Position numbers and translations under genes: made by a program | Notes under the pieces: generated by a model | The model's input: the letters and a program-made list of their open reading frames with translations, nothing else | Told to the model about the DNA's origin: nothing | The model's database searches: none | Source of the DNA: a virus | IMG/VR virus record: IMGVR_UViG_3300020182_000028 | Location: 3,492 to 67,491 of that record | DNA: 64,000 bases | Reading direction: 5' to 3' (one strand) | In this document: positions 14,717-52,932 of the stretch, piece by piece | Numbering within the stretch: the stretch's first letter is position 1 | How the letters are laid out: every line of letters starts with the position of its first letter

Positions 14717-14868
14717 TATACTGCCTCCACTTTGTAACTACGAACTTCAGCCCATTCACCACTGTTACTAAGACTAGAATGTAATGAACGTGCATTTTCA
14801 TATGTCAAACCACTGACATGCATACTGTCTGCATTTTCACCAAAGTTCTTTGCTGCTACTGACCACAT
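14716..14868 (-). CDS. Small hypothetical early protein (50 aa; not in ORF track)
   Basis: Hand-translated MWSVAAKNFGENADSMHVSGLTYENARSLHSSLSNSGEWAEVRSYKVEAV; AAGGAG SD; downstream of promoter 14902..14930. Confidence 0.65.
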   Translation of the reverse strand: MWSVAAKNFGENADSMHVSGLTYENARSLHSSLSNSGEWAEVRSYKVEAV

Positions 14869-14901: not shown

Positions 14902-14930
14902 TTTATAGAGTGATTCGCAATGATTGTCAA
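14902..14930 (-). promoter_or_regulatory. Sigma70-type early promoter with CGAATCACT (GANTC) spacer box
   Basis: TTGACA-ATCATTG-CGAATCACT-C-TATAAA. Confidence 0.85.
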
Positions 14931-14933
14931 GAT

Positions 14934-15128
14934 TTAATACAACCATTCCTGTAGTTTTTCGTAAACAAACGAATAGTCATTGTTGATTACGTCAAGTTCT
15001 TCTTCTGTGGCTTCAACGCCATTGATAACAGCAGATTCAATATACGCATCGCAGAACTTAGGATAGTCTGCCATGTCAACACCTTCAAATTCGATATCAG
15101 TTACTTTTGTGAAATCTATAATATTCAT
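14934..15128 (-). CDS. Small hypothetical early protein
   Basis: 64 aa acidic ORF downstream of promoter 15160..15188. Confidence 0.65.
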   Translation of the reverse strand: MNIIDFTKVTDIEFEGVDMADYPKFCDAYIESAVINGVEATEEELDVINNDYSFVYEKLQEWLY

Positions 15129-15159
15129 ATTATCTTCTCTTTCTTTTGATTACTTAACT

Positions 15160-15188
15160 AGTATAAAGTGATTCGTTGGATATGTCAA
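15160..15188 (-). promoter_or_regulatory. Sigma70-type early promoter with CGAATCACT (GANTC) spacer box
   Basis: TTGACA-TATCCAA-CGAATCACT-T-TATACT. Confidence 0.85.
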
Positions 15189-15225
15189 CCAAATAAAAAC
15201 TCAAAATGTTTGTTCATCTTTTTCA

Positions 15226-15387
15226 TCAATTTATTCTCACTGCTTTTATATTATCTAAACTCGCACCAGTATACTTACTCGCACTGCCGCCTATCATAAA
15301 TGCTTTTTCACGTGCTGAGTATTCTGTCATTGCATATTGATATCCAAGAAAGATATTATTGTAAAATATTTGCCAAGTATAAATCAT
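15226..15387 (-). CDS. Small hypothetical early protein (53 aa; not in ORF track)
   Basis: Hand-translated MIYTWQIFYNNIFLGYQYAMTEYSAREKAFMIGGSASKYTGASLDNIKAVRIN; GGTGGAG SD. Confidence 0.6.
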   Translation of the reverse strand: MIYTWQIFYNNIFLGYQYAMTEYSAREKAFMIGGSASKYTGASLDNIKAVRIN

Positions 15388-15398
15388 CAAACTCCACC

Positions 15399-15596
15399 TT
15401 AACTATATTTTTCTACATGAACAACAAATCCAACTTGACGATTTGGATCATCGGCATCATGCCCGCTATCGTGTGCAATTGGCCCACGAATGTGCGTATC
15501 GCGGTCTGGCCGCCCAGTTTCTTTTGTATTGAAACCTTCGATATACGAAAGAGCCTCTTCTTTTGTTTTGAAGAAATAACTGTTTTTCTTGTGCAT
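15399..15596 (-). CDS. Small hypothetical early protein
   Basis: 65 aa ORF with AGGA SD downstream of promoter 15625..15653. Confidence 0.6.
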   Translation of the reverse strand: MHKKNSYFFKTKEEALSYIEGFNTKETGRPDRDTHIRGPIAHDSGHDADDPNRQVGFVVHVEKYS

Positions 15597-15624
15597 GATG
15601 ATTTCCTATCTAACTTATACATTC

Positions 15625-15653
15625 TTTATAAAGTGATTCGTCAATAATGTCAA
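15625..15653 (-). promoter_or_regulatory. Sigma70-type early promoter with CGAATCACT (GANTC) spacer box
   Basis: TTGACA-TTATTGA-CGAATCACT-T-TATAAA; -10 and leader (plus-strand CTATCTAACTTATACATTCTTTATA, 25 nt) identical at 14883..14907 and 15606..15630. Confidence 0.85.
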
Positions 15654-15665
15654 CCTTTTTCCCAA

Positions 15666-15673
15666 GATAAATA
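15666..15673 (+). promoter_or_regulatory. T4-like late promoter (GATAAATA)
   Basis: GATAAATA in the divergent intergenic gap upstream of ORF 15707. Confidence 0.5.
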
Positions 15674-15706
15674 ACTACGAATATAATAAAGAAGGATTTA
15701 TAAAAT

Positions 15707-16438
15707 ATGTTATATGCGAATGGATGTAGTTTTACATACGGTACTGGTCTAGCAAACAAAGTAGATGCTTGGCCTTATGAATTGGCAGAACTATTAGGAT
15801 TTGATAGAGAACAAACACAAACTGAAGCAGACCGTGGAGTTTCAAATGGTTACATTGTACGAACCACTATTAAAACAGTCAGCGATTTACTTGCAGATGG
15901 TGAGAAACCATTTGTTGCTATTGGTCTAACATCTCCCAGTAGAAGGGAGCATTTTATTGAATCAGCAAATTTATTAATACATAATATACCTTCACCTGAG
16001 TATCAGGGCAATGTTAGATTAGATGAAAATACGAACAAAGAACTAGCATTATTAAATTCACTTTATATGAAGCATTTTTGGTCGCCGGTATACGATTTTC
16101 ATCAATATATAATTCATATTATTACTGTACAAAATTTTTTAGAGAATGCTGGATTGGAATATGTTATATTTAATTCATTAAATTTATCTCCCAATCTTAT
16201 TGATCCTACAAAATTTTCAAAAATATGTGAAGATTTTGAAATGAGTAATGTAATGAAACAATTAGACATGACCCATATATACGAAGAACAAACATTTTTT
16301 ACATATATGTATGACAAGGGACTATTTTTTGAAGCAATTGACGATGAAAGATATATGCATCCCAATGCCGAAGCACATAAAGATTGGGCTAAAATTATAT
16401 TCAATGATATAGAACGAACAAGATCGGGTAATGGATAA
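15707..16438 (+). CDS. SGNH hydrolase-like protein (GCS variant)
   Basis: ANGCSFTYG, GVSNGYIVRT, YMHPNAEAH. Confidence 0.65.
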   Translation: MLYANGCSFTYGTGLANKVDAWPYELAELLGFDREQTQTEADRGVSNGYIVRTTIKTVSDLLADGEKPFVAIGLTSPSRREHFIESANLLIHNIPSPEYQGNVRLDENTNKELALLNSLYMKHFWSPVYDFHQYIIHIITVQNFLENAGLEYVIFNSLNLSPNLIDPTKFSKICEDFEMSNVMKQLDMTHIYEEQTFFTYMYDKGLFFEAIDDERYMHPNAEAHKDWAKIIFNDIERTRSGNG

Positions 16439-16707
16439 TGTATATATATTGTATATCAGATGGTAGCGATTTATGTAAGTTTGGTTTCAGTAATAATCCA
16501 GAAAAAAGGCTCAAAGCATTACAGACTGGAAATGCAAAAAAATTAAATATTATTGAAACAATTTATATAGATGGTGATGTTAATAAATTAGAGAAAAAAC
16601 TACACAGGGAATATTCACACCGTCGTGTACATGGTGAATGGTTTAATGCTACTCCAGAAGAAGGAAAAGAAATGTTAACCTGGTTTGAAATACATTACAT
16701 TAATTGA
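16438..16707 (+). CDS. GIY-YIG superfamily (T5orf172-like) nuclease-domain protein
   Basis: YIYCI...KFGFSNNPEKRLKALQTGN...EKKLH...GEWF. Confidence 0.75.
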   Translation: MYIYCISDGSDLCKFGFSNNPEKRLKALQTGNAKKLNIIETIYIDGDVNKLEKKLHREYSHRRVHGEWFNATPEEGKEMLTWFEIHYIN

Positions 16708-16973
16708 GAATTATTATGGGAATTAAGACTATTTTTGAAATATTAGATGCGTGGCATACTGAACGCAAGAGACACGATGACAAAACGTTTAAGCAATGGC
16801 TCAAACATGTCGGTGGATTGTGGACATCTAAAGAAGAATGGAAAAAAATAGGCAGATTAGAAACTTGGAAGCCAGTAGTTGAAGATACTGGAAAAGGTAT
16901 AGGCAAAATGTTTATAATAAAAGTTCTCACTGTAATAATATTAATAATACTAGTAAATTTAGGAATAGAATAA
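16704..16973 (+). CDS. Hypothetical protein with C-terminal membrane anchor
   Basis: C-terminal FIIKVLTVIILIILVNLGI hydrophobic helix; real start may be ATG 16716. Confidence 0.5.
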   Translation: MRIIMGIKTIFEILDAWHTERKRHDDKTFKQWLKHVGGLWTSKEEWKKIGRLETWKPVVEDTGKGIGKMFIIKVLTVIILIILVNLGIE

Positions 16974-16975
16974 GA

Positions 16976-17089
16976 ATGAAAAAAATATGGCAAATAATAA
17001 TTTATCCTTATACATTGTATAAAGAGAAAAAACGATTAAAAAAACGTTTAGCAGAACTACGTAAGCGTGATCCGTTTATATATAAATGA
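16976..17089 (+). CDS. Small basic peptide coupled to the carbamoyltransferase (37 aa; not in ORF track)
   Basis: Hand-translated MKKIWQIIIYPYTLYKEKKRLKKRLAELRKRDPFIYK; ATGA overlap with the next gene. Confidence 0.6.
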   Translation: MKKIWQIIIYPYTLYKEKKRLKKRLAELRKRDPFIYK

Positions 17090-18621
17090 TTGTATTAGGT
17101 ATATCAGGTGCATTAAACCATGATGCTGCGGTCAGCGTCATTGATGATGGTAAAATTCTTTTTGCCAGTCATAGTGAACGCTATTCTAAAATAAAAAATG
17201 ACCCTAACTTGAATGCAGAAATAATTCAAGAAGCTCTCTCGTATGGTCGCCCTGACGTTATAGCGTGGTACGAACGTCCTGTAATAAAGAAGTTTAGACA
17301 ATTTGTATCTGGTCAATACAATCTTGCGTTTGATATAAATGAATTACCCAGTAAGTATCTTAAACAATTTACCGAGTTAAAAGATATTCCAATTAAATAT
17401 CAATCACACCATTACACTCACGCGGCCAGTGGATACTTCACTAGTGGATATAATGATGCAGTTATTGCTGTTATTGATAGTATAGGTGAATATGAAACTC
17501 TTACTATATGGAAAGGTGTGGGAGAAACACTAACTAAAAAATATACACAATCGTATCCCAACTCAGTTGGTTTATTTTATAGTGCTATGACACAACGTCT
17601 TGGCTTAAAGCCTCAGGAAGATGAGTATATACTTATGGGTATGGCTGCATATGGCGACCATACAAGACAGGTTAGAGGTCGTACAATAGTTCAGCACATT
17701 TATGATACGCTAGATATACGTTTAAATGACACTAATCCTCCATTATTTAATATTGTAAGTTTCAAAAAAAATTTACATCGTGGATGTAAATGGTTCTTGC
17801 CAGAGTTAACTACCGAACAAGATTATTTTGATATTGCTGCAGCAACACAAAAAGTTTATGAAGATATATTAAGTGAAATAATAAACTATATAACAACTAA
17901 ATTTGGTTATCATAATAATTTAGTTATTATGGGAGGTTGCTCTCTTAACTGTAGTGCGAATAATTTAATAACAGGAAGATTTAAAAATGTTTGGATAATG
18001 CCAAATCCAGGCGATGCTGGTAGTTGTATTGGCGCATCGCAAAAATTCTTCGATACTAGAATCAAATGGGAAACTCCTTATCTAGGTCATAATATAGAAG
18101 GTAGTTATCCAGTAGAGAAAGCATTGAATGCATTACTTAATGGTGATATTATTGGCATTGCAAATGGTCGTGCAGAGTTTGGTCCACGTGCATTAGGTAA
18201 TCGTACTCTTACTGCTGACCCACGTGGAGAAACAATTAAGGATAGAATGAATGAAATTAAACGTAGGCAAAAGTTTAGACCATTCGCACCAATGATACTA
18301 GAAGAAGATGTACACGATTATTTCATTATGCCAGAAAACATTAATAGTTCGCCTTATATGCAATTTGTTGCTAAGTGTAAACATCCACTTGATTTTCCTG
18401 CAATTATACACGAAGATGGAACCTCACGTGTGCAGACAGTTAACAAACAACAGCATCCAGGATTATATACATTGTTGACCAAGTTTAAAGAAAAGACTGG
18501 TTGTCCCATGCTTGTGAATACATCATTAAATATTAAAGGTCAACCTATAGTTAATGATATAAACGATGCTCAAGAATTTTCCAAGCATTATGGTATAAAA
18601 GTCTTTACATCAGATGATTAA
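17086..18621 (+). CDS. O-carbamoyltransferase (NodU/CmcH/TobZ family)
   Basis: HDAAVSVI...SERYSKIKND, HHYTHAASG, GGCSLNCSAN, PGDAGSCIG, EFGPRALGNR, RQKFRPFAP, DGTSRVQTV, NTSLN. Confidence 0.92.
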   Translation: MIVLGISGALNHDAAVSVIDDGKILFASHSERYSKIKNDPNLNAEIIQEALSYGRPDVIAWYERPVIKKFRQFVSGQYNLAFDINELPSKYLKQFTELKDIPIKYQSHHYTHAASGYFTSGYNDAVIAVIDSIGEYETLTIWKGVGETLTKKYTQSYPNSVGLFYSAMTQRLGLKPQEDEYILMGMAAYGDHTRQVRGRTIVQHIYDTLDIRLNDTNPPLFNIVSFKKNLHRGCKWFLPELTTEQDYFDIAAATQKVYEDILSEIINYITTKFGYHNNLVIMGGCSLNCSANNLITGRFKNVWIMPNPGDAGSCIGASQKFFDTRIKWETPYLGHNIEGSYPVEKALNALLNGDIIGIANGRAEFGPRALGNRTLTADPRGETIKDRMNEIKRRQKFRPFAPMILEEDVHDYFIMPENINSSPYMQFVAKCKHPLDFPAIIHEDGTSRVQTVNKQQHPGLYTLLTKFKEKTGCPMLVNTSLNIKGQPIVNDINDAQEFSKHYGIKVFTSDD

Positions 18622-18632
18622 TATGTTATAAT
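18604..18632 (+). promoter_or_regulatory. Sigma70-type promoter for the second half of the tailoring cluster
   Basis: TTTACA-17 nt-TATAAT with TG extension. Confidence 0.6.
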
Positions 18633-18661
18633 GATATTAACTGTTAATTTATGGGTTACCT

Positions 18662-19753
18662 ATGGCATACGATTGTTTTTTTATTACTGATGAATTATCT
18701 GTTCAATCAATTGAACAGTATAAAAAAGTATTGACACAGATTCCAAATGCACAGTTGGTAAAATCAAATGACCCATCTGATATCAACAGTTTATATACAG
18801 AAATAAAAAAGAATGTTAATACTGAATACTATTGGGCAATTGATAGTGAAATAGATACATTTGACTTTGATTGGGAATTTAAACCTTCAGATTGGGATAA
18901 CGAATTACCGCATATATGGAGTACTGGCACCAGAAATATTTATGGCACGGATGTGGGTATTAGATTAATACATAAAAATCACGATGCAGGTATGATTGAA
19001 AATGATTTATACTTATTATCTGGTAAGTATGTTATGCATGATATGTTAAAATATAATCCTATTGGTAAACAACATGATATAATTTATCTAAGTTATGATG
19101 AAGAATTTGCTGATGAACACTATCAAAAATTATTAGAAAGATTTCCTTTTGCAAAAAGAGTTCATGGTGTTTCTGGGATTTTCAATGCACATAAAAAAGC
19201 AGCATTTCTCGCTGAAACTGATATGTTTTATGTGGTTGATGCAGATGCAATAATAACTTCAGATTTTAATTTTGATTATTATGCACCAAAATGGGATAGA
19301 GAAACTGTGCATGTATGGCATTCATTGAATCCAATTAATGATCTAGTATATGGCTATGGTGGTGTTAAATTATTTCCAACTAACTTACTACGTAATGCAA
19401 ATGATTGGAACATAGATTTTACTACTAGCATATCTAGCAGTTTTAAGTTGATGGAAGAAATATCTAATATAACTAATTTTAATACTGATCCTTTTAGCAC
19501 TTGGAAAAGTGCGTTTAGAGAATGTGCTAAATTATCAAGTAAGAGTATTAAAGGACAGGTTGATAGTGAAACCAATGACAGGTTACAGACTTGGAAACAA
19601 GTTGGAAAAGGCAAAACATTTGGAGAATATGCCGTAGAAGGAGCAATCGCAGGCTGCGATTATGGGGAAGAAAACAAAGAAGATATCGTTAAATTAAATA
19701 AGATAAATGATTATACATGGTTAAAAGAAAGGTTTGATATATATTATGAGTAA
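18662..19753 (+). CDS. Glycosyltransferase-like protein (GT-A, DADA motif) with a degenerate N-terminal duplicate domain
   Basis: HDIIYLSYDE...GVSGIFNAHK...VVDADA, LVYGYGGVK, SAFRECAKL; paralogue of 4268..5224. Confidence 0.6.
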   Translation: MAYDCFFITDELSVQSIEQYKKVLTQIPNAQLVKSNDPSDINSLYTEIKKNVNTEYYWAIDSEIDTFDFDWEFKPSDWDNELPHIWSTGTRNIYGTDVGIRLIHKNHDAGMIENDLYLLSGKYVMHDMLKYNPIGKQHDIIYLSYDEEFADEHYQKLLERFPFAKRVHGVSGIFNAHKKAAFLAETDMFYVVDADAIITSDFNFDYYAPKWDRETVHVWHSLNPINDLVYGYGGVKLFPTNLLRNANDWNIDFTTSISSSFKLMEEISNITNFNTDPFSTWKSAFRECAKLSSKSIKGQVDSETNDRLQTWKQVGKGKTFGEYAVEGAIAGCDYGEENKEDIVKLNKINDYTWLKERFDIYYE

Positions 19754-20669
19754 CGTTAGGAGTAAAAGAGTAGCACGGAGAAAACTTGTATTACCGAAAT
19801 CAACGTCAGTATTATATGATGAATTAATTGATGGTTCAAATCCAACACTAATAATAGAAGATTCGATTGAAGAAAAAACACATGATGTGGTAGAGTCTTC
19901 AACTGGAATACAAAACTATGATTATCATAGAATGATTAATCTTTATACAGAAAATAATCCTTCTCAGCAACTCGGTAATTATCGTTCAGCAATGGACTAT
20001 CTTTGTTACTATAATACGAATGTTACCAGGGAAAATATGTTAGTCGATAGACTTAAAGATTTAGTATATGACTACCCTAACTATGATATATCATCTTACG
20101 CTAATAAACAGAATGGTGCAATACATAGTTGGGTAATATCACAGATGACAAATGTATTTGCAAAAAAATATCTAGGGACTGTTTACATCTTAGATGGTGG
20201 GATTGGACTATTAGGTGCAGGCTTTTTAGATAGTTCATTAGTATTTCAAAACATTCGTAGTTTTGATCTTAATCCTTCTGGACAATTTATGGCAGATTCA
20301 ATGATGAAAAATGAATTACTTGAAGATTGGAAATTTAAATCTACTACACAAGATATATTTAATTTGGATTATATAAAGAATGAATTTATTACCACTCTCC
20401 CTGACGGTAGTTTAAGCAATCCATTTGACGAAATTCCAAATGTAGTAATTAATACCAACATAAGTTATATTGAAAATTATGAAGATTGGTGGAAGATGGT
20501 TCCAACCACTCGTTATGTAGTATTAGTTTCTACTAGTGATGAAAATTCAGCAAGACCATTTCTAAGTTCAATTGCGTTTAACCGTAAATTTCAATTGGAA
20601 ACTGAGTTTTATTCGGGTAATCAAAAAATAAATGGAATAAATTATTATATGAAAATTGGTATCAAGTAA
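19734..20669 (+). CDS. Class I SAM-methyltransferase-like protein (degenerate paralogue of 20670..21515)
   Basis: VYILDGGIGLL, IRSFDLN, WKFKSTTQDI, PNVVINTN; likely start at MSNVRSK (19746). Confidence 0.5.
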   Translation: MIYIMSNVRSKRVARRKLVLPKSTSVLYDELIDGSNPTLIIEDSIEEKTHDVVESSTGIQNYDYHRMINLYTENNPSQQLGNYRSAMDYLCYYNTNVTRENMLVDRLKDLVYDYPNYDISSYANKQNGAIHSWVISQMTNVFAKKYLGTVYILDGGIGLLGAGFLDSSLVFQNIRSFDLNPSGQFMADSMMKNELLEDWKFKSTTQDIFNLDYIKNEFITTLPDGSLSNPFDEIPNVVINTNISYIENYEDWWKMVPTTRYVVLVSTSDENSARPFLSSIAFNRKFQLETEFYSGNQKINGINYYMKIGIK

Positions 20670-21515
20670 ATGCTTCCTACCTTTGAATTATTAGATAGAT
20701 ATGAACTACTATATCCTACGAATAGTAATCTCTCAGATTTGCGTAGAGCATATATTGATAAGGATTTAAGTAGTATTTTTCGACTAGTAAACGATAATAA
20801 TAAAGAAGATTTACGTAAATTAATTATGGAAGATAACACGTGGAAGTTATGGCCGGTATTAGATAGTTATGTTGACACACAGTTTACGGCTGCGTTTAAA
20901 AGTTTCTTTGTTAATGAAACAGAAATTTGGAATGACTGTTTTTCTAGAGGCCAATTACGGAGCAAATTGTGGTTAGTACATGAACTTAAAAAATGCAATG
21001 TAGAACTTGGCACAGTATTTTTATGTGCAGGATGGTATGCTACACTTGCTACAATGTTATTTCAGAGTAACATTAAGTTACTTAATGTTAGATCTTTTGA
21101 CATTGACGATACTTGCGTAGACATTGCTGAAACATTTAACAAGCCATGGTTTGTTGATCAATGGCGCTTTAAAAGTATCACACAAGATATAATGGATGTC
21201 GATTATGACGAACATACATGGCAGTATTGGAGTAATGCTAACAATAGAATGAGCAAACCTATTACTGATACTCCAAATACTATTATAAATACAAGTTGTG
21301 AACACATTGAAAACTTTGCAGAATGGTATGATCTAATACCAGATGGCAAATTAGTTGTACTACAAGGCAATAACTTTTTTGAAGTAGAAGAACATGTAAA
21401 TTGTTCAACAAGTATTTCGCAATTTAGTAGAAGTTGTCCTATGAAAGAAACATTATTTGAAGGCGAATTATTTTTATCAGATTATACAAGGTTTATGAAA
21501 ATTGGATATAAATAA
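20670..21515 (+). CDS. Class I SAM-methyltransferase-like protein
   Basis: GQLRSKLWL, VFLCAGWYA, VRSFDID, INTSCEH, VLQGNN. Confidence 0.6.
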   Translation: MLPTFELLDRYELLYPTNSNLSDLRRAYIDKDLSSIFRLVNDNNKEDLRKLIMEDNTWKLWPVLDSYVDTQFTAAFKSFFVNETEIWNDCFSRGQLRSKLWLVHELKKCNVELGTVFLCAGWYATLATMLFQSNIKLLNVRSFDIDDTCVDIAETFNKPWFVDQWRFKSITQDIMDVDYDEHTWQYWSNANNRMSKPITDTPNTIINTSCEHIENFAEWYDLIPDGKLVVLQGNNFFEVEEHVNCSTSISQFSRSCPMKETLFEGELFLSDYTRFMKIGYK

Positions 21516-21538
21516 TTTATTAGTTAAACAACACAGCA

Positions 21539-22072
21539 TTGGATGTTCAGATGAAAAGAATACATGAATCCAGAAACAGTGTTATAGAACTTGATACAGA
21601 AACTAGATTACTTTATAAGACTCTAAAGCATAGGGAGGTATCTGATGACTGGCTACATAATTACAACCTAGTACGCAATGATAATAGCATGTATGTAAAA
21701 GTTCATAATGTGATTGATAATAAAACATTTACTATGGATTATATTGATGCTATTGGTGACCTAGAATATATTATCAAAGATCCTTCTAATTGGCAAATGA
21801 TTGATAAGGACTTCGTTATACAATCCATTCAGTCTTATACTAATGCTTACTTGGACGGATTGAGGGTCAGCAAAAATAGAACTGATAAACATTATTTTAT
21901 GCACACTGATCTAACACTTGATAACATATTAGTTGACAACAATAAACAAATTAGGATAATTGATCCCGACTCATACACTTGGGTGCCCAATCTACAATGG
22001 ACAGAAAAATATTATATAACTCATATAAATATGATGTTCTGTTTGCAAAGGTATTTTTACGAATATGTATAA
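21539..22072 (+). CDS. APH/choline-kinase-like phosphotransferase
   Basis: HTDLTLDNILV (HxDxxxxN) followed by IIDPD. Confidence 0.6.
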   Translation: MDVQMKRIHESRNSVIELDTETRLLYKTLKHREVSDDWLHNYNLVRNDNSMYVKVHNVIDNKTFTMDYIDAIGDLEYIIKDPSNWQMIDKDFVIQSIQSYTNAYLDGLRVSKNRTDKHYFMHTDLTLDNILVDNNKQIRIIDPDSYTWVPNLQWTEKYYITHINMMFCLQRYFYEYV

Positions 22073-23150
22073 TTATAATGATATCAAAGAAGTTCACTTA
22101 GAGATTACACAAAAATGTCAAGCAGCATGTCCGATGTGTGACCGAAATGAGAATGGTGGAAAAGACAATAGACACATTATAAATGCTGAACTTAGTCTTG
22201 CGGATTGCAAACGTATCTTTGAGCCAGAGTTTATTGCACAGTTACGCACAATGTATATGTGTGGTAATCTTGGTGATCCTATTGTTGCCAGGGATACATT
22301 AGAAGTATTTAAATACTTTAGAGAACATAATCCAACAATGTGGCTAAGTATGAATACAAATGCTGGTGCAAAGAATCCAGAATGGTGGGAAGAATTAGCT
22401 GGTGTTATCAACAATAACGGTGCAGTAATATTTAGTGTTGATGGTCTTCGTGATACCAATCATCTTTACAGACAAAATGTTGTTTGGGATAATGTAGAAC
22501 GTAATATGAAAGCATTTATTTCTGCCGGTGGCAGAGCGAGATGGGATTTTTTGATATTTCAACACAATGAACATCAGGTTGCAGAAGCAGAATCACTTGC
22601 GATTGAATGGGGTGTTGAGCGTTTTGTTAAAAAGAAAAGCGCACGTTTCATTAGTAGTATCACTAGCGAAGCAAAGGATTGGCATCAGAGTAGAAACCGT
22701 AACGGTGAGCAAACACAAGTCATAGCCAAGCCTAACAAAATGGACAACCAGAATTTAATACTACACAAGCAAAAAGAAATAGAAAAGACATATGGTAGTA
22801 TGATGGAGTTTTACAATCAATGTGATATTGAGTGTAAGGTTGCAAAACAAAAGAGTATTTTTATTACTGCAGAAGGTTTATTTTTGCCATGCTGTTGGAC
22901 TGCTGGTAGAATGTACAAGTGGTGGCACAAGGACTATCGTGTAGAACAGATATGGGATTACATTGACGCCGCCGGAGGCAAAAAAGGTCTTGATGTTATT
23001 AACAATAGTTTACAGAGTGTTATTGACGGTACACTAGTAGATGATATTGAAAGCAGTTGGAAAAAGCAAAGTATCAAAGAAGGTAAGATCGGAGTATGCG
23101 CTCAAAAATGTAGTGTAGGGTTTGACGTATTCGAGGCACAGTTCACATGA
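22065..23150 (+). CDS. Radical SAM/SPASM protein (rSAM 4)
   Basis: EITQKCQAACPMC, CGNLGDP, C-terminal CKV...LPCCW...CAQKC. Confidence 0.9.
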   Translation: MYNYNDIKEVHLEITQKCQAACPMCDRNENGGKDNRHIINAELSLADCKRIFEPEFIAQLRTMYMCGNLGDPIVARDTLEVFKYFREHNPTMWLSMNTNAGAKNPEWWEELAGVINNNGAVIFSVDGLRDTNHLYRQNVVWDNVERNMKAFISAGGRARWDFLIFQHNEHQVAEAESLAIEWGVERFVKKKSARFISSITSEAKDWHQSRNRNGEQTQVIAKPNKMDNQNLILHKQKEIEKTYGSMMEFYNQCDIECKVAKQKSIFITAEGLFLPCCWTAGRMYKWWHKDYRVEQIWDYIDAAGGKKGLDVINNSLQSVIDGTLVDDIESSWKKQSIKEGKIGVCAQKCSVGFDVFEAQFT

Positions 23151-27147: not shown

Positions 27148-27148
27148 A

Positions 27149-31115: not shown

Positions 31116-32224
31116 ATGAAGATTTAAAATGGTCAAATTATGACTTTACTAAAATACCCTTTGATGACATTGTTAGTGTTGGTCAGCGTACTTTGCTGTA
31201 TCGTGACCTATTTACTGTTAGTTGGTTACTCGGCAGATTCTGCAACTACAAATGCTCCTACTGTTGGCCTTATGCCCGCAGTGACCGTAAAGACCACCGT
31301 CCTACCGAATTATGTCTACAAACCATAGATGAAATAAAGAGACAAGCACGTGAAAATGGATTTAATAGTTTTCATTTTTCATTGTCTGGTGGCGAACCAA
31401 CCTTTCATCCAGGATATTTAGATATTCTGGGACATCTTGCAGACGATGTATCAAATACTAACTACACTAGTGTTCATATGACAACTAATATGTCACGTAA
31501 TGTTAAATGGCATGAGGATTATGTAGAGCGAGTTAAACCATTTCATCGTGCAAGTATCACTGCTAGTTTGCATACTGAGCATCTTAACACCAAAGATAAG
31601 ATGCAAGAGTTTGCAGATAAACTTATATTATGTCAGGAAAATGATGTACAAATTACAGTGAATATGGTTATGGTTCCAGATTGGTTTGAAAGAGATTGGG
31701 AAAACGCCCTGTTCTTCCACGAACAAGGAATCAACGTTACACTCAAACCTCAATCAGACCCTACTGCAAGTCGTGTGGTTGATGGATATACAGAAGAACA
31801 GATGAAAAGATTGTGGAATGGTATGCCACAACTTGCTTACACTGAGGTTAAACGTAAATGGAATGATAGACCAAAACCCAATTTCCAAGTTCCAGAATAT
31901 GCGATTGGTCAAAATGATAAGAGTGTACCTTGGCATATGCAAGTAGAGTTTACAGACTCAAAAGGTAAGAAATGGTATATGGATCAGGCTGAGCGTTTTA
32001 ATGCATTTAACTTTAATAACTTCGAAGGTTGGAGTTGTAACAGTGGCTATCAGGGTATCATAATACGTGAACCAGATGGTAGTATAAAACGTAGTTATAG
32101 TTGTGCAGACCAGCCATTGGGATATATCGAAAGTGGATTTAAACTATTTGACAAACCAATGCCATGTATAAGTAAGAGTTGTGTTAGTAGTGCAGATAGC
32201 AAAATACCAAAACGTAAGACATAA
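31112..32224 (+). CDS. Radical SAM/SPASM protein (rSAM 10)
   Basis: CNYKCSYC, LSGGEPT, C-terminal WSCNSG...SC...CISKSCVSSAD. Confidence 0.9.
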   Translation: MNEDLKWSNYDFTKIPFDDIVSVGQRTLLYRDLFTVSWLLGRFCNYKCSYCWPYARSDRKDHRPTELCLQTIDEIKRQARENGFNSFHFSLSGGEPTFHPGYLDILGHLADDVSNTNYTSVHMTTNMSRNVKWHEDYVERVKPFHRASITASLHTEHLNTKDKMQEFADKLILCQENDVQITVNMVMVPDWFERDWENALFFHEQGINVTLKPQSDPTASRVVDGYTEEQMKRLWNGMPQLAYTEVKRKWNDRPKPNFQVPEYAIGQNDKSVPWHMQVEFTDSKGKKWYMDQAERFNAFNFNNFEGWSCNSGYQGIIIREPDGSIKRSYSCADQPLGYIESGFKLFDKPMPCISKSCVSSADSKIPKRKT

Positions 32225-32225
32225 A

Positions 32226-32247
32226 AAAAGCACCCTAGGGTGCTTTT
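32226..32247. terminator. Bidirectional intrinsic terminator between convergent blocks
   Basis: Perfect palindrome AAAAGCACCCTAGGGTGCTTTT. Confidence 0.85.
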
Positions 32248-32251
32248 CTTT

Positions 32252-33121
32252 TTATACTGCCATTGGTGCTCGAATAGTTTCTCCCGGTTCATATCCTATA
32301 ACTTCGAAATCATCCATTTTAAAATCAAAGATAGATTGTATGTCACGTTTTATCATTAACTTTGGAAAGGCTCTTGTAGGGCGCTGTAGTTGCGCCTCAA
32401 CTGCTTCTATATGGTTATTATATATATGTCCATCTCCTATAACGTGAATAAATTCACCCACATCGTATTTACAAACATGTGCAAGCATATGAGTTAATAA
32501 TGAATAACTTGCAATATTAAATGGAACACCTAAGAATAAGTCTGCACTACGTTGATATAAACTACAACTTAATCTTCCATTGTTGTCTACATAGAACTGT
32601 GACATAACATGGCATGGAGGTAGTGCCATTTTATCTAAGTCACCAACATTCCATGAATTTAAAATATGCCTGCGTGATTGTGGATTATTTTTTAATCCTT
32701 GCACTAACTGATCTATTTGATCTATTCCATTAAAGTTTCGCCATTGTACTCCGTAGACTGGGCCCAAGTCTTTATTAGTGTCACTATTATAGTGTCCTAA
32801 TGCTTTGCCTTGTGCGTCTGCGTTGGCAGTCCATATTGTTGTTTTGCCAATAAGTTCTGCCCTAGGTTTACCATAATGAATTTCAGCAAGTCTTCGTTCA
32901 TTCATTGACCCTTCTAAGAACCAAAGTAATTCACTTAATACTGATTTAAATGGCACACGTTTGGTTGTTAAAAGAGGAAATCCATTACTAAGATTATATC
33001 TATTTGTAGTCATAAAAATAGAGCGTGTGCCAACACCAGTGCGCTCGGCACCACGTATTTCTCCTTTTTCTAGTGTATGATGCAGTAAATCTAAGTATTC
33101 ATCTTCTTCATAGTTTGTCAT
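32252..33121 (-). CDS. thyA: Thymidylate synthase
   Basis: RTGVGT, FPLLTTK, ELLWFL, LGPVYGVQWR, LPPCH, QRSADLFLGVPFNIASY, HIYNNH. Confidence 0.97.
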   Translation of the reverse strand: MTNYEEDEYLDLLHHTLEKGEIRGAERTGVGTRSIFMTTNRYNLSNGFPLLTTKRVPFKSVLSELLWFLEGSMNERRLAEIHYGKPRAELIGKTTIWTANADAQGKALGHYNSDTNKDLGPVYGVQWRNFNGIDQIDQLVQGLKNNPQSRRHILNSWNVGDLDKMALPPCHVMSQFYVDNNGRLSCSLYQRSADLFLGVPFNIASYSLLTHMLAHVCKYDVGEFIHVIGDGHIYNNHIEAVEAQLQRPTRAFPKLMIKRDIQSIFDFKMDDFEVIGYEPGETIRAPMAV

Positions 33122-33436
33122 TTATTCACTTTGGTCCCTATAACTTTGAAAATGTTGTTTTAAAATTTCTTTTACACTTTTTACTACACTCTCACGTAGG
33201 CTTGGTATATCTAGTAATATTTCAACATCATCAATTGAATCGAAATTTTTTGCCATATCTGCCCAACTGAAGTCACCACTAAGTGGCAGCGGCGATAATA
33301 GATCATCTCCATTCAGTGTAACCTCATGTCCATTTCGCATGATAACTTTAATACCTTTAATAAATGAAGATGGAATACTGATGGGAACCACTTCTTCCAT
33401 TATTCTATCAAATTCTTTTTCTCTATCGAATTCCAT
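33122..33436 (-). CDS. Hypothetical protein
   Basis: 104 aa ORF in operon. Confidence 0.6.
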   Translation of the reverse strand: MEFDREKEFDRIMEEVVPISIPSSFIKGIKVIMRNGHEVTLNGDDLLSPLPLSGDFSWADMAKNFDSIDDVEILLDIPSLRESVVKSVKEILKQHFQSYRDQSE

Positions 33437-33444
33437 ATTTATTC

Positions 33445-33723
33445 CTAACTTAGATGCCCATGTTCCTTCATTACCTCTATGTGTTCAAGCGATGCTAATA
33501 TAACTGCCGCCGCCTTCACTAATTCTCTTTCAAATTCTACAGAATTTGGAGGAGTAAGCATAGTTGCACGTTTGGTTTCCTGGGCCAAATAATATGATGT
33601 TATTGCAATCCAATCATTTGGAGAGTTTTTTGCATCATATTCACTGCCCGCCAAATCATATTGGCGAACACGTTCTTGCTCAATTCTACTTAGAATGCTA
33701 CTACGCTTACTATTAACAGACAT
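33445..33723 (-). CDS. Small all-alpha protein, possibly MazG-like NTP pyrophosphohydrolase fold
   Basis: EQERVRQ...NDW...ERELVKAAAVILASLE pattern; weak. Confidence 0.35.
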   Translation of the reverse strand: MSVNSKRSSILSRIEQERVRQYDLAGSEYDAKNSPNDWIAITSYYLAQETKRATMLTPPNSVEFERELVKAAAVILASLEHIEVMKEHGHLS

Positions 33724-34370
33724 TATGTTGCAGACTTCCTTGGACGGCCACGCTTCTTAGGAACATTTGGAACTGCAGATGTTTCTACTGACGCCTTCGC
33801 TTTTGGTTTCGCTGCTTTTTTTGCTTTAGGTTTCAGACTAGGATCATAATTATATGCTTCCTGTCTTTTTGCTTCTGCGTCTGCAGCCAACAAGTTTGCT
33901 TGTACCAAAAGATTCTGCGCAATTTGTTTATTTTCATCTGCCTTTGACGATTTAACATTTGAATCAATACGTGATTCTTGTGGTTCTACAGATTTGACTG
34001 TTTCTTGTTCTGTAGAATTCATTGCGGCATTGATTTCATTCAATGGTACATTTGTTTGTGTATTTGGAGTCATAATAATCTGATCTGTTGGGATCTTTGA
34101 AAGATGTCCTTCAGCGTGGAGTGTATCTAACATGACTTTGCCATGCCAAAATACTTTGCGTGAAAGAACTTCATATAGATTATTAGTTGTTTGGCCTTCA
34201 TTAGACTCAATTGCTTCCATATACGAATCGTGATAGCGATCCGGCAATGAATCACTGTACACTGCTAGAGCATTTTCTGGTTCATCAGGAAGAGACATGA
34301 AAACAACACTTAGTCTTTGTCCTGTTCCCTTATGTCTGCCAACGTGTTTTATAAATGGTGCAGTTGCCAT
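33723..34370 (-). CDS. Conserved large-phage hypothetical protein with basic C-terminal tail
   Basis: 215 aa; KKRGRPRK AT-hook-like tail. Confidence 0.6.
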   Translation of the reverse strand: MATAPFIKHVGRHKGTGQRLSVVFMSLPDEPENALAVYSDSLPDRYHDSYMEAIESNEGQTTNNLYEVLSRKVFWHGKVMLDTLHAEGHLSKIPTDQIIMTPNTQTNVPLNEINAAMNSTEQETVKSVEPQESRIDSNVKSSKADENKQIAQNLLVQANLLAADAEAKRQEAYNYDPSLKPKAKKAAKPKAKASVETSAVPNVPKKRGRPRKSAT

Positions 34371-34375
34371 AATTG

Positions 34376-34633
34376 TTAACCTGCTTCTTCGGGTGTTTCA
34401 GTTTCACCAGTTACTTCTGCTGCCGCTGCATTTTGTGCCTGTACGTGATCCACAAATGCTTTAACACGATTTGCAGTATTTCCTACTGCAGATAGTTCAC
34501 CTGCTTGGAATGCTCCGCGCTTTGATGCTAGATCAATAATAGCATATACATTAACAAGATCGTTAACTGTAACCGCTGGTACTTCTGCTGGTGCTTCTGC
34601 AGCAACTTCAGGTGCTTGAGTTTCTTCTGACAT
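34376..34633 (-). CDS. Small acidic conserved viral protein
   Basis: DL..V..IIDLASKRGAF...E...VG helical motif; GGAG SD. Confidence 0.6.
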   Translation of the reverse strand: MSEETQAPEVAAEAPAEVPAVTVNDLVNVYAIIDLASKRGAFQAGELSAVGNTANRVKAFVDHVQAQNAAAAEVTGETETPEEAG

Positions 34634-34698
34634 ATTAAGTTTCTCCTATTTTGTCAATTTATTATATATAATATGAATAAACTCTTATTCATACTACA

Positions 34699-34727
34699 AT
34701 TATACTATATTAAGTGATTGTTGTCAA
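34699..34727 (-). promoter_or_regulatory. Sigma70-type promoter
   Basis: TTGACA-17 nt-TATAAT. Confidence 0.8.
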
Positions 34728-34733
34728 GTGATT

Positions 34734-35273
34734 TTATGCAACCATATTTACATATTCATCTGGCCAGTTTAGATATTTTAGCCAAATTTCATGCTTTATG
34801 TTTAATGTAAAATTTTTACTTCCATACATTTGATAAAAACTGGGTTTATCTGGCATAACTTTGGGTACAATATTTGAATTATTTCCTTTACTATGATTGC
34901 ATTTTTTACACGCACTTACGATATTATGCCAATTTGTTCTGCCACCCTTACTTCTTGGTAATATATGATCAAGTGTTAAATCTTTCTTATTGAATGTATT
35001 ATGACAATATTGACATGTATATCTGTCACGTATAAAAACATTTGCTCGGCAGAAATTAATTGTGCCAGAGTGTGGCATGTATTCCCTAACACAAATAACA
35101 CTAGGTACATGCATACTATGATTAACTGACCTTACAGTCCAATCATGCCATTCAAGTACATTTATCTTATCTAACCAGATAAGTTTTATACTCTCTTGCC
35201 AGGTTAAAGTTGATAACGGTGTCACGCTTAACGGCGCACCATTAGCATTCAATAATAGTGTATCATTGCTCAT
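34734..35273 (-). CDS. HNH endonuclease (McrA-like)
   Basis: RDRYTCQYC...TLDHILPRSKGG...CKKCNHSK. Confidence 0.9.
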   Translation of the reverse strand: MSNDTLLLNANGAPLSVTPLSTLTWQESIKLIWLDKINVLEWHDWTVRSVNHSMHVPSVICVREYMPHSGTINFCRANVFIRDRYTCQYCHNTFNKKDLTLDHILPRSKGGRTNWHNIVSACKKCNHSKGNNSNIVPKVMPDKPSFYQMYGSKNFTLNIKHEIWLKYLNWPDEYVNMVA

Positions 35274-35278
35274 AATTA

Positions 35279-35286
35279 TATTTATA
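35279..35286 (-). promoter_or_regulatory. T4-type late promoter TATAAATA, 5 nt before the HNH ATG
   Basis: TATAAATA-TAATT-ATG. Confidence 0.55.
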
Positions 35287-35297
35287 CTTATATTTTA

Positions 35298-36632
35298 CTA
35301 TGATTCGTAATATGTGTATTCGCCAAATGGTGGCACAATATGCTGTGAGCCATGAATAACAAACAAAGTTTCACAATACGCAGGATTACCCCAACTACCA
35401 AATGGCATACCATCAGTAAACATGATAAACTTATCCGGTTCAATTTGATTTTCTTCCATGAAGTCCCAATTACAAGCAAAATCTGTTCCTCCGCAGCCAA
35501 TAATTTCATACTCTTTTAATTCTTCTGAATTCATTGGTGTAAATTCTTTAAATGATTCGGGATATACATGAGTATCAAAAGTCCATATTTTTAAACGGAA
35601 ATCTTGAAATTGTTGCATGATTCCATAAATTTCTCCCAAGAAGTCACGGATCATATCTTTAGATATAGAACCAGATACATCAATACCTATTGCAGCATCT
35701 ACCATAACTTCATTGTCCATACCTGGTAGATAGATACCCATACTACGTGATTTGCGAGATTGCCGCATCCATGTAAAATCTGCTTTTTGAGAACTTTGGA
35801 TACTTAGATTAATATATTCACGCCAGTCCATTTTCGGTTCTGTCATATCTTTAATCATACGCTTGATATCACCAGGAAGATTGCCAGCACCAGATGCTTG
35901 AGCGGCCTGTAATACAGCCTGTTTCATTTGGTCTTTAATTTCTTTGGCTTCTTCTTTTGAAATTTTGATAGGAGCTTTACGTCCAGTGGGATCATTTTCG
36001 CCACTGCCATTACCTTCACTATCACCGAACATATGTTCATCAAGTGTGTCAGTATCACTAAAATCTTTTCCATCTTTTTGTTGTTGTAAGAGGTCACGAT
36101 ATATTTCTTCGGTATATGATTTGTAATATTTGCGGTCATACAATGCTTGCTTTGGCATTGTGCCGATTTTTGATTCTACTGTTGCCTGATTGACTTTATA
36201 ATCAGCAGCAATATTCCACAACTTTGCATCACGCTCGTCTTCTACGAAGTCCATTAAACGACTGCCAATACCACAATGATCATATACACAGTGAAATACC
36301 TCATGTCCTACAATGAAGTCAATTTCTTCGGGTGTCATAGTGCGGAAGAAATCTGAATTATAATAGAAATGTTTACCATCTACTGCGGCTGTTGGGCACC
36401 ATTCTGCCTCAACAAGTTTCAAACGTGTAGCAAGTGTACCAAAGAAGGGATGTTTAATCAATAGACGAACACGTCCTGAAACAATCATTTCTTTAACTTC
36501 ATTATCAGTATATTCGAATACTACAGGTTCTTCAGAATTTTCATCGATTTCTATACCGTTTTCCTTTAAAAGGTCATCAAATACTGCATTGAAATCATCT
36601 TCAGTTGTAATTTTTTCTGGTTCGATACGCAT
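35298..36632 (-). CDS. Metallopeptidase + VWA-like domain protein (DUF2201-type)
   Basis: PFFG.LA, TAAVDG, HEVFH (HExxH), DVSGS MIDAS, GGTDF, FTDG. Confidence 0.85.
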   Translation of the reverse strand: MRIEPEKITTEDDFNAVFDDLLKENGIEIDENSEEPVVFEYTDNEVKEMIVSGRVRLLIKHPFFGTLATRLKLVEAEWCPTAAVDGKHFYYNSDFFRTMTPEEIDFIVGHEVFHCVYDHCGIGSRLMDFVEDERDAKLWNIAADYKVNQATVESKIGTMPKQALYDRKYYKSYTEEIYRDLLQQQKDGKDFSDTDTLDEHMFGDSEGNGSGENDPTGRKAPIKISKEEAKEIKDQMKQAVLQAAQASGAGNLPGDIKRMIKDMTEPKMDWREYINLSIQSSQKADFTWMRQSRKSRSMGIYLPGMDNEVMVDAAIGIDVSGSISKDMIRDFLGEIYGIMQQFQDFRLKIWTFDTHVYPESFKEFTPMNSEELKEYEIIGCGGTDFACNWDFMEENQIEPDKFIMFTDGMPFGSWGNPAYCETLFVIHGSQHIVPPFGEYTYYES

Positions 36633-36662
36633 GTAATTTCCCTTTTCATTTACTCAAATAGT

Positions 36663-36691
36663 AATATAGCATCTATTATTTAGATTGTCAA
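36663..36691 (-). promoter_or_regulatory. Sigma70-type promoter for the VWA gene
   Basis: TTGACA-17 nt-TATATT. Confidence 0.7.
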
Positions 36692-36693
36692 GA

Positions 36694-36718
36694 AAAAAGG
36701 GCATCTAGTGCCCTTTTT
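36694..36718. terminator. Intrinsic terminator after the AAA ATPase gene
   Basis: AAAAAGGGCA-TCTAG-TGCCCTTTTT. Confidence 0.8.
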
Positions 36719-36723
36719 ATTAA

Positions 36724-37851
36724 TTAAGTATTATGAGCATCAATAATTAGTTTACCATACTTTTTGAAAAACTTTTCAATACAAGGAACTTTGCGTGGCT
36801 CTAGTGGAAGTTTATAAACTTTAAGTGCAGTCCGACCACCAAGTACGGTCATTTCTGTTTCAAAGTTATCCATCATAAAGTTGAAGAAATTGTTAGCCAT
36901 TTTGTATAACTCATCCATTTTTTCTTTGCCGTTACGGTCTAAAAAATCTTTAAGTTCGTAGCATAGTGAAGCAGTTAGTGAGAACATGGCAGATATTTCA
37001 CGTGCTTCCGGTGTTAATGTAGTAACTGTGCCATTTAAGATGTCAGTTGGATTAGGAAGTTTGCCTGCAATTGCACGATGTGCCATAAACTTAGTAGCGA
37101 TACCATCGCCCACTGTGCCAGAAATCAAGTCATGCAAACGACTATCAGTGATTTGCTCACCTGGCATTGGGAGCATTTGAGATACGAAAGTCCATGAACG
37201 AGGAGTTGCAAATGCCCGCGATGCAGTGCGAGGATCAAAGCTCATTAGATCCATTTTATTAGCAGTAACATAACCTACGACTTCTGCATCTATATTATTC
37301 TCAAGTGCCCAAGTCTGCCAATCTTCAAAATCAGTTGTCATTTCAAGGTGAACAAAGCGGTTAGCAAGTGCAGTAGGCATACGATACGCAACCCCACGGT
37401 CACTTTCACGGTTACCTGCAGCAACGATTAGAACATTTTCAGGAAGTTTATAGTTACCTAGACGCCGATTAAGAATTAACTGATATGCTGCTGCTTGTAC
37501 TGATTGCGGTGCCTGATTCATTTCATCTAAGAATAAAACAATACAATCAAACTGGTCAGCAAGTTCTTGAGTGGGAAGATCAGCAGGCGGTAACCATTCC
37601 ATCAGTCCAGTCTCAATATTTGGAACAGGAATACCACGCAAGTCTGTGGGCTCCATAAGTGCAAGCCGCATATCAATCATATATCCTGATCGTTCTTGTG
37701 TAATAGAACTTACAATTTCAGATTTTCCAATGCCCGGAGGTCCCCAAATAAAGACAGGACGCTTTCGATTCATTGCATAGTTAACTTCTTCACGAATATC
37801 ACTTGGGCGAACTAAACGAACATCCATATCATGAGTTGAAACTTGTACCAT
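36724..37851 (-). CDS. MoxR-like AAA+ ATPase
   Basis: WGPPGIGKS (Walker A), LFLDEMN (Walker B), AAGN, ALANRF. Confidence 0.9.
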   Translation of the reverse strand: MVQVSTHDMDVRLVRPSDIREEVNYAMNRKRPVFIWGPPGIGKSEIVSSITQERSGYMIDMRLALMEPTDLRGIPVPNIETGLMEWLPPADLPTQELADQFDCIVLFLDEMNQAPQSVQAAAYQLILNRRLGNYKLPENVLIVAAGNRESDRGVAYRMPTALANRFVHLEMTTDFEDWQTWALENNIDAEVVGYVTANKMDLMSFDPRTASRAFATPRSWTFVSQMLPMPGEQITDSRLHDLISGTVGDGIATKFMAHRAIAGKLPNPTDILNGTVTTLTPEAREISAMFSLTASLCYELKDFLDRNGKEKMDELYKMANNFFNFMMDNFETEMTVLGGRTALKVYKLPLEPRKVPCIEKFFKKYGKLIIDAHNT

Positions 37852-37890
37852 TATGATTCTCTTTCTATTTTGATTACTACTATAACTTAT

Positions 37891-37919
37891 AGTATAGCGT
37901 AGTTGAATTGTACTGTCAA
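37891..37919 (-). promoter_or_regulatory. Sigma70-type promoter
   Basis: TTGACA-17 nt-TATACT. Confidence 0.75.
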
Positions 37920-37926
37920 GAACTTT

Positions 37927-38235
37927 TTAAGACTGGAGAGGAGATGCTGGTATTGCATTTTCTACTAGAAAAGCACGGTAACCTTCGTCAACATCCATTA
38001 ACTCATTTTGCCATTCTTTCCATGTCATGGCTTCTATCGGAAACTCTTTGCAATACAGATCATTTACCATATATTTTGCAGCAATAAATGCCATAGCATC
38101 TTGTGGACGTTCTACATCTTTCACAATATATTCATTGCCGCCCTTCATTTTCCAGTAAGCATTACCATTTGAAAATTTGCCATCTGCTGAATGTGCACCA
38201 TAATTTTCTAGAATTTGTGTTTTAACAACAAACAT
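37927..38235 (-). CDS. Small hypothetical early protein
   Basis: 102 aa; under GANTC-box promoter 38267..38295. Confidence 0.65.
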   Translation of the reverse strand: MFVVKTQILENYGAHSADGKFSNGNAYWKMKGGNEYIVKDVERPQDAMAFIAAKYMVNDLYCKEFPIEAMTWKEWQNELMDVDEGYRAFLVENAIPASPLQS

Positions 38236-38266
38236 ATCATATCCCTTTATTACTGTCTATATATTC

Positions 38267-38295
38267 TTTATATAGTGATTCGTTTAGAATGTCAA
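38267..38295 (-). promoter_or_regulatory. Sigma70-type early promoter with CGAATCACT (GANTC) spacer box
   Basis: TTGACA-TTCTAAA-CGAATCACT-A-TATAAA. Confidence 0.85.
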
Positions 38296-43739: not shown

Positions 43740-43768
43740 TATTACCTCTGTTTTTAAATTATGATTCT

Positions 43769-43797
43769 ATAATAGATGATTTAAATACTAATGTCAA
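43769..43797 (-). promoter_or_regulatory. Sigma70-type promoter; GAATC directly after the -10
   Basis: TTGACA-17 nt-TATTAT-AGAATCAT. Confidence 0.7.
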
Positions 43798-52860: not shown

Positions 52861-52903
52861 TTATATTTTTCCCATATTAGTTACGAATATAGTTTATGAT
52901 TCG

Positions 52904-52932
52904 TTTATAGCATGTTGATTTTATAATGTCAA
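52904..52932 (-). promoter_or_regulatory. Sigma70-type promoter for the autotransporter; CGAATCA directly after the -10
   Basis: TTGACA-17 nt-TATAAA-CGAATCAT. Confidence 0.75.

Follow-up and report, generated by a model that had tools for sequence, protein, structure and literature searches.

A promoter class of uncultured marine and estuarine jumbo phages with a -10-anchored box that resembles the site of GcrA

A 64-kb stretch of viral DNA (the window), which makes up most of the 67.7-kb IMG/VR contig IMGVR_UViG_3300020182_000028, carries four promoters of the sigma-70 type that share the nine bases CGAATCACT at one fixed position of the spacer that separates the -35 element from the -10 element. 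This box marks a promoter class that is found throughout a family of related phages. Its conserved core contains a GANTC site and, as far as can be judged from the DNA, corresponds to the published optimum for GcrA with matching strand and position. GcrA is an alphaproteobacterial cofactor that acts on domain 2 of sigma-70 and reads GANTC sites whose adenine has been methylated by CcrM. We consider it nearly an even chance that a clade of uncultured marine and estuarine jumbo phages wires its early promoters to the alphaproteobacterial CcrM/GcrA epigenetic module.

A family-wide class of box promoters

The pattern TTGACA-N7-CGAATCACT has four exact matches in the window, all on the minus strand (14909-14930, 15167-15188, 15632-15653 and 38274-38295), whereas 0.15 are expected and none of 100 shuffled sequences reached four. 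Without mismatch the 9-mer occurs nowhere else in the window. Each box is followed by one free base and then by TATAAA (three copies) or TATACT (one copy), giving a 17-nucleotide (nt) spacer. Judged by sequence, TTGACA-N17-TATAAA/TATACT is a core promoter for a primary sigma factor, such promoters having their -35 and -10 hexamers 16-18 nt apart. The seven nucleotides between the -35 element and the box differ in all four copies, which therefore do not stem from a recent duplication. A recently duplicated promoter cassette was ruled out by these variable bases in the window copies and in their orthologues alike; in relatives the orthologues of the fourth promoter keep the box while the spacer upstream of it is altered. 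An earlier interpretation made from the letters of the window only (the sequence-only reading) had described four promoters with an identical 9-mer in a fixed register and an otherwise variable spacer, and this description was confirmed; each of the positions that it gave (14902, 15160, 15625 and 38267) is the lowest coordinate of a -10 hexamer. Its tally of 14 sigma70-type promoters agrees with the approximately 14 well-formed TTGACA-N17-TAnnnT promoters that we counted in the window.

Promoter 1 (14902..14930, minus) has its TTGACA at 14925-14930, the box at 14909-14917, the -10 hexamer TATAAA at 14902-14907 and a predicted start at about 14895. It precedes open reading frames (ORFs) of 50 amino acids (aa; 14716-14868) and 65 aa (14519-14716), followed by a radical-SAM gene of 351 aa (13447-14502) and an ORF at 12662-13447. 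In promoter 2 (15160..15188, minus) the -35 element lies at 15183-15188, the box at 15167-15175, TATACT at 15160-15165 and the predicted start at about 15153, in front of an ORF of 64 aa (14934-15128). Promoter 3 (15625..15653, minus; -35 element 15648-15653, box 15632-15640, TATAAA 15625-15630, predicted start about 15618) is followed by ORFs of 65 aa (15399-15596) and 54 aa (15226-15390), and promoter 4 (38267..38295, minus; -35 element 38290-38295, box 38274-38282, TATAAA 38267-38272, predicted start about 38260) by a single ORF of 102 aa (37927-38235). A purine-rich ribosome-binding site was found within 30-40 nt of each box promoter, and then a small ORF of 50-102 aa; no Pfam family was found for these small ORFs. 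They had been called small early-type ORFs before, of which the small size stands, and early expression of the genes behind box promoters is plausible by analogy with T4-like phages.

A scan for positional enrichment of the motif, as proposed with the sequence-only reading, was run on a larger scale. Among 2.9 million viral contigs the exact pattern TTGACA-N7-CGAATCACT was found at 117 loci at least. About 100 of the 140 matches listed have a TATA-type -10 hexamer in register together with a conserved start region, and most of the loci, among the matches listed, have proteins in common with the window or with a relative, G001 (342 kb, 92% complete). The shorter pattern CGAATC-N4-TATA gave 4, 28, 15, 21, 13, 14, 12, 6, 5 and 5 matches in ten family contigs, i.e., 123 in total and nearly all on one strand within each contig, versus three matches for the reversed control pattern in the same contigs. 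In 18 cultured phages, most of them with alphaproteobacterial hosts, it has zero to two matches each. The box is a family-wide promoter class and not a local repeat.

In six family genomes the box is present on 66 of 128 well-formed promoters, so that the class comprises about half of them, and by their sequence the box promoters are strong promoters for the primary-sigma RNA polymerase of the host. Box promoters are followed by shorter first ORFs than box-free ones (median 94 aa vs. 126 aa, p = 0.048).

The conserved core of the box and the GcrA site

The bases under selection were determined with 186 unique family promoters, which were gathered by CGAATC-N4-TAnA alone, without reference to the -35 element. 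TTGACA is nevertheless found upstream in about 88% of them. Position 7 of the box is A in 162 promoters, G in 18, T in four and C in two (purine in 97%), whereas positions 8-9 are variable and the spacer upstream of the box is unconstrained. Selection thus holds the core CGAATCR, or YGATTCG on the template strand. In addition, there is a preference for purines immediately 5' of the box and for CT at its positions 8-9.

The distance between the box and the -10 hexamer is 4 nt in promoters with 16-nt and with 17-nt spacers alike; the position of the box is tied to the -10 element, the element that sigma domain 2 reads. There is also a minor register, TTGACGAATCR, in which the box overlaps the -35 element and is centred at about -28 (12 cases in the six genomes, about eight of them with a -10 hexamer in place). 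Of the 215 CGAATCR sites in these genomes, 99 follow the start of TTGAC at 12-14 nt and a further 12 at 4 nt, while control words reach at most two at any offset. Downstream of the -10 hexamer a T-purine step is conserved at 6-7 nt within a start region T-R-T-A, and this step is likely -1/+1. With +1 placed at the conserved purine, 7 nt behind the -10 hexamer, GAATC falls at -21 to -17 (centre about -19) and the CGAATCR box spans approximately -22 to -16 relative to the predicted start.

The same data bear on the idea that no trans-acting factor is involved, and that the box is an intrinsic spacer element, acting by DNA shape or by direct interaction with the beta-prime zipper or with region 3 of sigma, or an inherited cassette. 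The core promoters are indeed near consensus, the start region T-R-T-A is conserved too, and early promoters of phages, T4 and T5 among them, are conserved beyond the hexamers as well, all of which would suit this idea. However, across the 186 promoters the box is kept although the spacer bases next to it are random, promoters with either spacer length have it at a constant distance from the -10 hexamer, and half of the promoters of equal strength do without it. The second register, in overlapping the -35 element, is not predicted by a single cassette either. We consider an intrinsic element very unlikely.

Still less credence, practically none, is given to the box being part of a promoter for a T7-like single-subunit RNA polymerase. 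Its sole support is that CGAATCACTATA agrees in 11 of 12 bases with what we take to be the T7 promoter core, CGACTCACTATA. In a promoter of that kind conservation is continuous from -17 to +6 and a -35 element is lacking. This candidate was rejected on account of the TTGACA 16-17 nt upstream of a TATAAT-like hexamer and the variable box positions 8-9, and no T7-type polymerase domain (PF00940) was detected in five family contigs including the 92%-complete G001, in a search run without a positive control. In the window CGAATCACTnTA at 14909-14920 and 38274-38285 is likewise one base off this presumed core, which we judged to be a coincidence.

For GcrA the published site is TGATTCG, or more broadly YGAKTCK (Haakonsen et al., 2015, PMC4647560), and in the GcrA regulon such sites are either 'narrowly centered around -20' or scattered between +2 and +30, the region of the -10 element being nearly free of them (PMC4647560). 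Upstream GcrA boxes were placed at -20 ± 1 and -30 ± 2 (Wu et al., 2023, PMC9976885). The Caulobacter PcsM scaffold reads TTGACA-N6-CG(m6A)ATC-N5-TATAAT on the non-template strand, m6A being the methylated adenine, and the DNA-binding domain of GcrA contacts the spacer face opposite the polymerase while its other domain sits on sigma-70 domain 2 (PMC9976885). The phage box agrees with these rules. On the template strand TGATTCG is present in four of the four window promoters, and family-wide the Y of YGAKTCK is kept in 97%, K = T and the final G being fixed by the way in which the set was chosen. With the predicted start, GAATC at -21 to -17 falls on the first upstream position, and the minor class at about -28 falls into the -30 ± 2 window. 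The box is on the same strand as in PcsM and 1 bp closer to the -10 hexamer (4 nt vs. 5 nt). In sequence the phage box is thus the published GcrA optimum, with matching strand and position as predicted from the DNA. Sequence, strand, position and second register could each have failed the prediction for GcrA; none did.

That the box promoters would be read by a GcrA/CcrM module is the explanation that we rank best because it accounts for sequence, strand, position, second register and the depletion of GANTC described below together; we give it an even chance. In the mechanism that we infer, the GANTC adenines of the phage DNA would be methylated by the CcrM of a presumed alphaproteobacterial host or, in some relatives, by a beta-class methylase of the phage. 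Through its DNA-binding domain the GcrA-RNA polymerase holoenzyme would then attach to the box, on the side of the spacer that faces away from the polymerase, and this docking may speed promoter capture and opening and thereby favour transcription, from the predicted start sites, of mostly small and probably early genes. Of the tuning by GcrA and GANTC methylation that had been proposed for these promoters, the part that concerns sequence, strand and position holds well, whereas the early timing and the coupling of infection to the host cell cycle are matters that we can only infer.

The main alternative is that the box is read by another sequence-specific protein and that its likeness to a GcrA site is coincidental. 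Such a protein could be a phage activator or repressor of early or middle genes, a protein injected with the virion or a host factor unrelated to GcrA. In its favour, the box is confined, in our data, to one clade of ten protein-sharing contigs and the class is present in none of the 18 cultured phages. The purines 5' of the box and the CT at positions 8-9 go beyond the GcrA consensus, and the existence of two promoter classes, with replication and tRNA genes served by the box-free one, resembles the temporal classes that are switched by factors of T4-like phages. However, the 7-base core that is held is exactly TGATTCG/CGATTCG among about 8,000 strand-collapsed 7-mers, its position and orientation are those of GcrA sites, and the second register coincides with the second GcrA window. 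The depletion of GANTC elsewhere in the genomes would not follow from a private protein site, and no candidate factor was found. We therefore regard another reader as unlikely, though as the rival to be taken most seriously.

GANTC sites, methylases and the host

The frequency of GANTC was computed as the ratio of observed to expected sites against a third-order Markov expectation. In the family it is 0.63, 0.69, 0.75, 0.86, 0.89 (the contig of the window) and 0.95. Nine alphaproteobacterial phages range from 0.01 to 1.02, seven of them below 0.85, whereas four gammaproteobacterial jumbo relatives range from 1.07 to 1.15; control pentamers are near 1. Two cultured phages avoid GANTC in the extreme: RDJLphi1 (NC_015466) has two sites in 50 kb against an expectation of 257 (0.01), and HTVC008M (NC_020484) has 86 against 504 (0.17), with control pentamers near 1 in both.

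A search for gcrA and ccrM homologues, which had been suggested as a check, turned up nothing for the former and a weakly CcrM-like gene for the latter: no GcrA domain is encoded in the five family contigs searched, and beta-class N6-adenine methylases are encoded in three relatives only (G002:C1:123394-124032, G004:C1:117037-117675 and G003:C1:143271-144536). Two of these enzymes have 288 aa and one has 483 aa with an extra N-terminal methylase-like part; CcrM is their best match both among solved structures (6pbd) and in NCBIfam.

These methylases would suit a reading in which GANTC methylation matters without GcrA, the box being a sensor of methylation state for RNA polymerase or for another reader of m6A. 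Such a sensor may tell incoming, replicating (hemimethylated) and packaged DNA apart, and it could work with a phage or a host methylase in any class of host. It is supported by the best match to CcrM in the three relatives and by the ratios of two methylase-bearing contigs (0.86 and 0.95), which are higher than the 0.63 of a relative without methylase. However, with a ratio of 0.69 the third contig that bears a methylase is depleted. The correlation between methylase and GANTC depletion is therefore not clean, and such a link was dropped. Moreover, the Y and G flanks of YGATTCG and the fixed N = A are held as strictly as GANTC itself, which points to a reader with the extended specificity of GcrA rather than to the methylase site by itself. 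We find a sensor without GcrA improbable.

With regard to the source of the DNA, the contig is rated 19% complete, and the full genome therefore has about 350 kb; the window comes from an uncultured marine or estuarine jumbo phage of this size. Near-identical DNA was found in metagenomes of nine studies from estuary, marine and marsh environments. The G+C content varies from 28 to 41% across the window (2-kb steps), and the genes encode a family B DNA polymerase, an exonuclease, an ATPase, radical-SAM enzymes, GTP cyclohydrolase I (FolE) and six tRNAs. Where family contigs carry the polymerase, it is 68-89% identical to that of the window. No close cultured relative emerged from a nucleotide search or from a search with the 822-aa protein, and a nucleotide search of cultured phages with one promoter gave AT-rich chance matches only.

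Hints toward an alphaproteobacterial host are that the polymerase is nearest to those of jumbo phages of Rhizobiaceae (Sinorhizobium phage Phosso, 49%; Agrobacterium phage Atu_ph07, 45%), with Rak2-like phages of Xanthomonas, Yersinia and Escherichia next at about 42%, and that GANTC is depleted as in alphaproteobacterial phages. A host among the Bacteroidota seems unlikely, as we presume from the TTGACA/TATAAT promoters and the strong Shine-Dalgarno sites. Two further genes were considered as host clues. For the SbmA/BacA-like gene homologues came from the phage family and from taxa at phylum level only, and for a ClpB-like gene of a relative from metagenome contigs only. The SbmA/BacA-like transporter gene (window 39091-40128) has 59-90% identity across at least 100 protein clusters, and since its homologues all lie on phage-family contigs among the matches listed, it belongs stably to the family and was not picked up from a host in recent times. 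In the relative (L024 1626-3869; L156 631-3244) a ClpA/ClpB-type AAA+ chaperone of 747 aa directly follows a DnaJ-domain protein of 125 aa.

Several observations weigh against GcrA as the reader of the box. The first group concerns the host. A 20-base promoter word had three chance matches, without family context, in 185,579 species-representative bacterial genomes, and the labels of metagenome-assembled genomes on family proteins disagree (Saprospirales, Gammaproteobacteria, Poseidoniia); being mutually inconsistent, these labels reflect mis-binning and not a host. With chance matches from the one and conflicting labels from the other, neither source points to the alphaproteobacterial host of the sequence-only reading. 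The kinship of the phage is ambiguous, in that its ATPase, a core gene, is nearest to that of Pseudomonas phage PA5oct (51%). The box class is absent from the cultured alphaproteobacterial phages Atu_ph07, Phosso, HTVC008M, phiM12, Cr30, PAU and phiCbK, and likewise from RDJLphi1, SIO1, DSS3phi2, RcapNL, RcTitan and RcapMu.

The second group concerns methylation. In the contig of the window GANTC depletion is slight (0.89), and the non-alphaproteobacterial controls are four only. The methylases match CcrM weakly (96 bits, the cut-off being 830) and no better than another adenine methylase family, and a beta-class methylase gene is absent from the 92%-complete relative G001. FolE is among the 7-deazaguanine genes that are carried, and if the G of the box were modified, the action of CcrM or GcrA could be disturbed.

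The third group concerns the promoters. Their -35 and -10 elements are near consensus, hence an activator is not obviously needed. Contigs of four RNA libraries (two studies) span 12-17 kb, from which neither starts nor proof of transcription can be had; they gave no transcript ends, and the start sites are predicted ones. Finally, two promoters carry a box directly behind the -10 hexamer, as had been noted for GAATCA at 43769 and 52904. One (52897..52932, minus; first T of TTGACA at 52932) combines an extended -10 element, TGC TATAAA, with CGAATCA at 52897-52903 and precedes the 822-aa gene (50392-52860). The other (43762..43797, minus; first T at 43797) reads TTGACA-N17-TATTAT with AGAATCA at 43762-43768 and precedes the exonuclease gene (42738-43739). 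Both boxes are centred at about -3, outside every published GcrA window, and they are not a recurrent class among the family relatives examined.

Other promoters of the window and known systems

A possible weak box promoter, read from the sequence, lies at 35285..35313 (minus), where CGAATC-ATAG-TAAAAT is in the family register and the -35 element is poor (AATACA). It is located inside the 3' end of the gene 35298-36632 and upstream of the ORF 34734-35273. The box-free class of the window is exemplified by CTTGACA-N13-ATGC-TATATT at 36663..36691 (minus), which has an extended -10 element. Further members of the form CTTGACA-N13-(A/T)(T/C)GC-TATATT are found at 64153-64181, 56629-56657 and 37891-37919 on the minus strand and at 1596-1624 on the plus strand. 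Promoters of this class precede the tRNA array, the polymerase operon, the ATPase and hydrolase genes and the radical-SAM cluster. As to the 351-aa radical-SAM gene behind box promoter 1, it lies within a 1,111-bp stretch (13392-14516) that is missing from the contigs of four RNA-library runs (two studies); some phage strains therefore lack it.

If GcrA does read the box, the virus would exploit an epigenetic reader of its host in cis, rather than encode a sigma factor or an activator of its own. Early transcription would hinge on how the incoming DNA is methylated and on the cell-cycle stage of the host, and the success of infection on DNA methylation and cell-cycle phase. The -10-anchored CGAATCR box would then also be a cheap marker, obtained from sequence alone, of alphaproteobacterial hosts for abundant uncultured coastal jumbo phages. 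To our knowledge, all GcrA boxes known so far lie on chromosomes of hosts, namely Caulobacter and its relatives, and no description of GcrA-type boxes in phage promoters was found in the literature. Phages of Alphaproteobacteria can encode homologues of CcrM and GcrA. The phages described here would likewise engage the CcrM/GcrA module, and some relatives have a beta-class adenine methylase; unlike in those phages, the proposed link is in cis, via promoter boxes.

Among promoters of other phages the early and middle classes of T4 come close, as they too belong to a large T4-related phage that has two promoter classes for the host polymerase, many small ORFs each with its own strong promoter, and conservation beyond the hexamers. 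In T4 middle promoters, however, a MotA box near -30 replaces the -35 element, whereas here TTGACA is intact and is joined by an extra element in the spacer, at -22 to -16; a MotA-dependent middle promoter was ruled out by this intact -35 element. A counterpart of MotA or AsiA was not found, no search aimed at one having been made. Extended -10 (TGn) promoters likewise have an added element upstream of the -10 hexamer, and the ATGC-TATATT class of the window is of that type. The box promoters of the window differ from them in having no TG at -15/-14 and in the position of the box further upstream (-22 to -16). Both elements are joined in a subclass of one relative, G001, where nine promoters read TTGACA-N6-CGAATCATGC-TATATT with a 16-nt spacer (e.g., 114469, 116565, 176879 and 330253 on the reverse-complement scale). 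These are almost the same over a 20-nt start region, which suggests that the cassette has spread recently and is strongly expressed.

The closest likeness is to the GcrA/CcrM promoters of Caulobacter crescentus such as PcsM (PMC4647560, PMC5887438, PMC9976885). Both are promoters for the primary sigma factor with a 17-nt spacer and a single GANTC within it, and the phage box shares with PcsM-type promoters the non-template CGAATC, a centre near -20 and a second class near -30. In contrast to Caulobacter, two promoters of the window have a box directly after the -10 hexamer, where Caulobacter has almost none, and the AT-rich -35 and -10 hexamers of the phage promoters are near the E. coli-type consensus instead of the Caulobacter type. 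Above all, the box is carried by phage DNA and not by a host chromosome, and it is present on dozens of promoters per genome.

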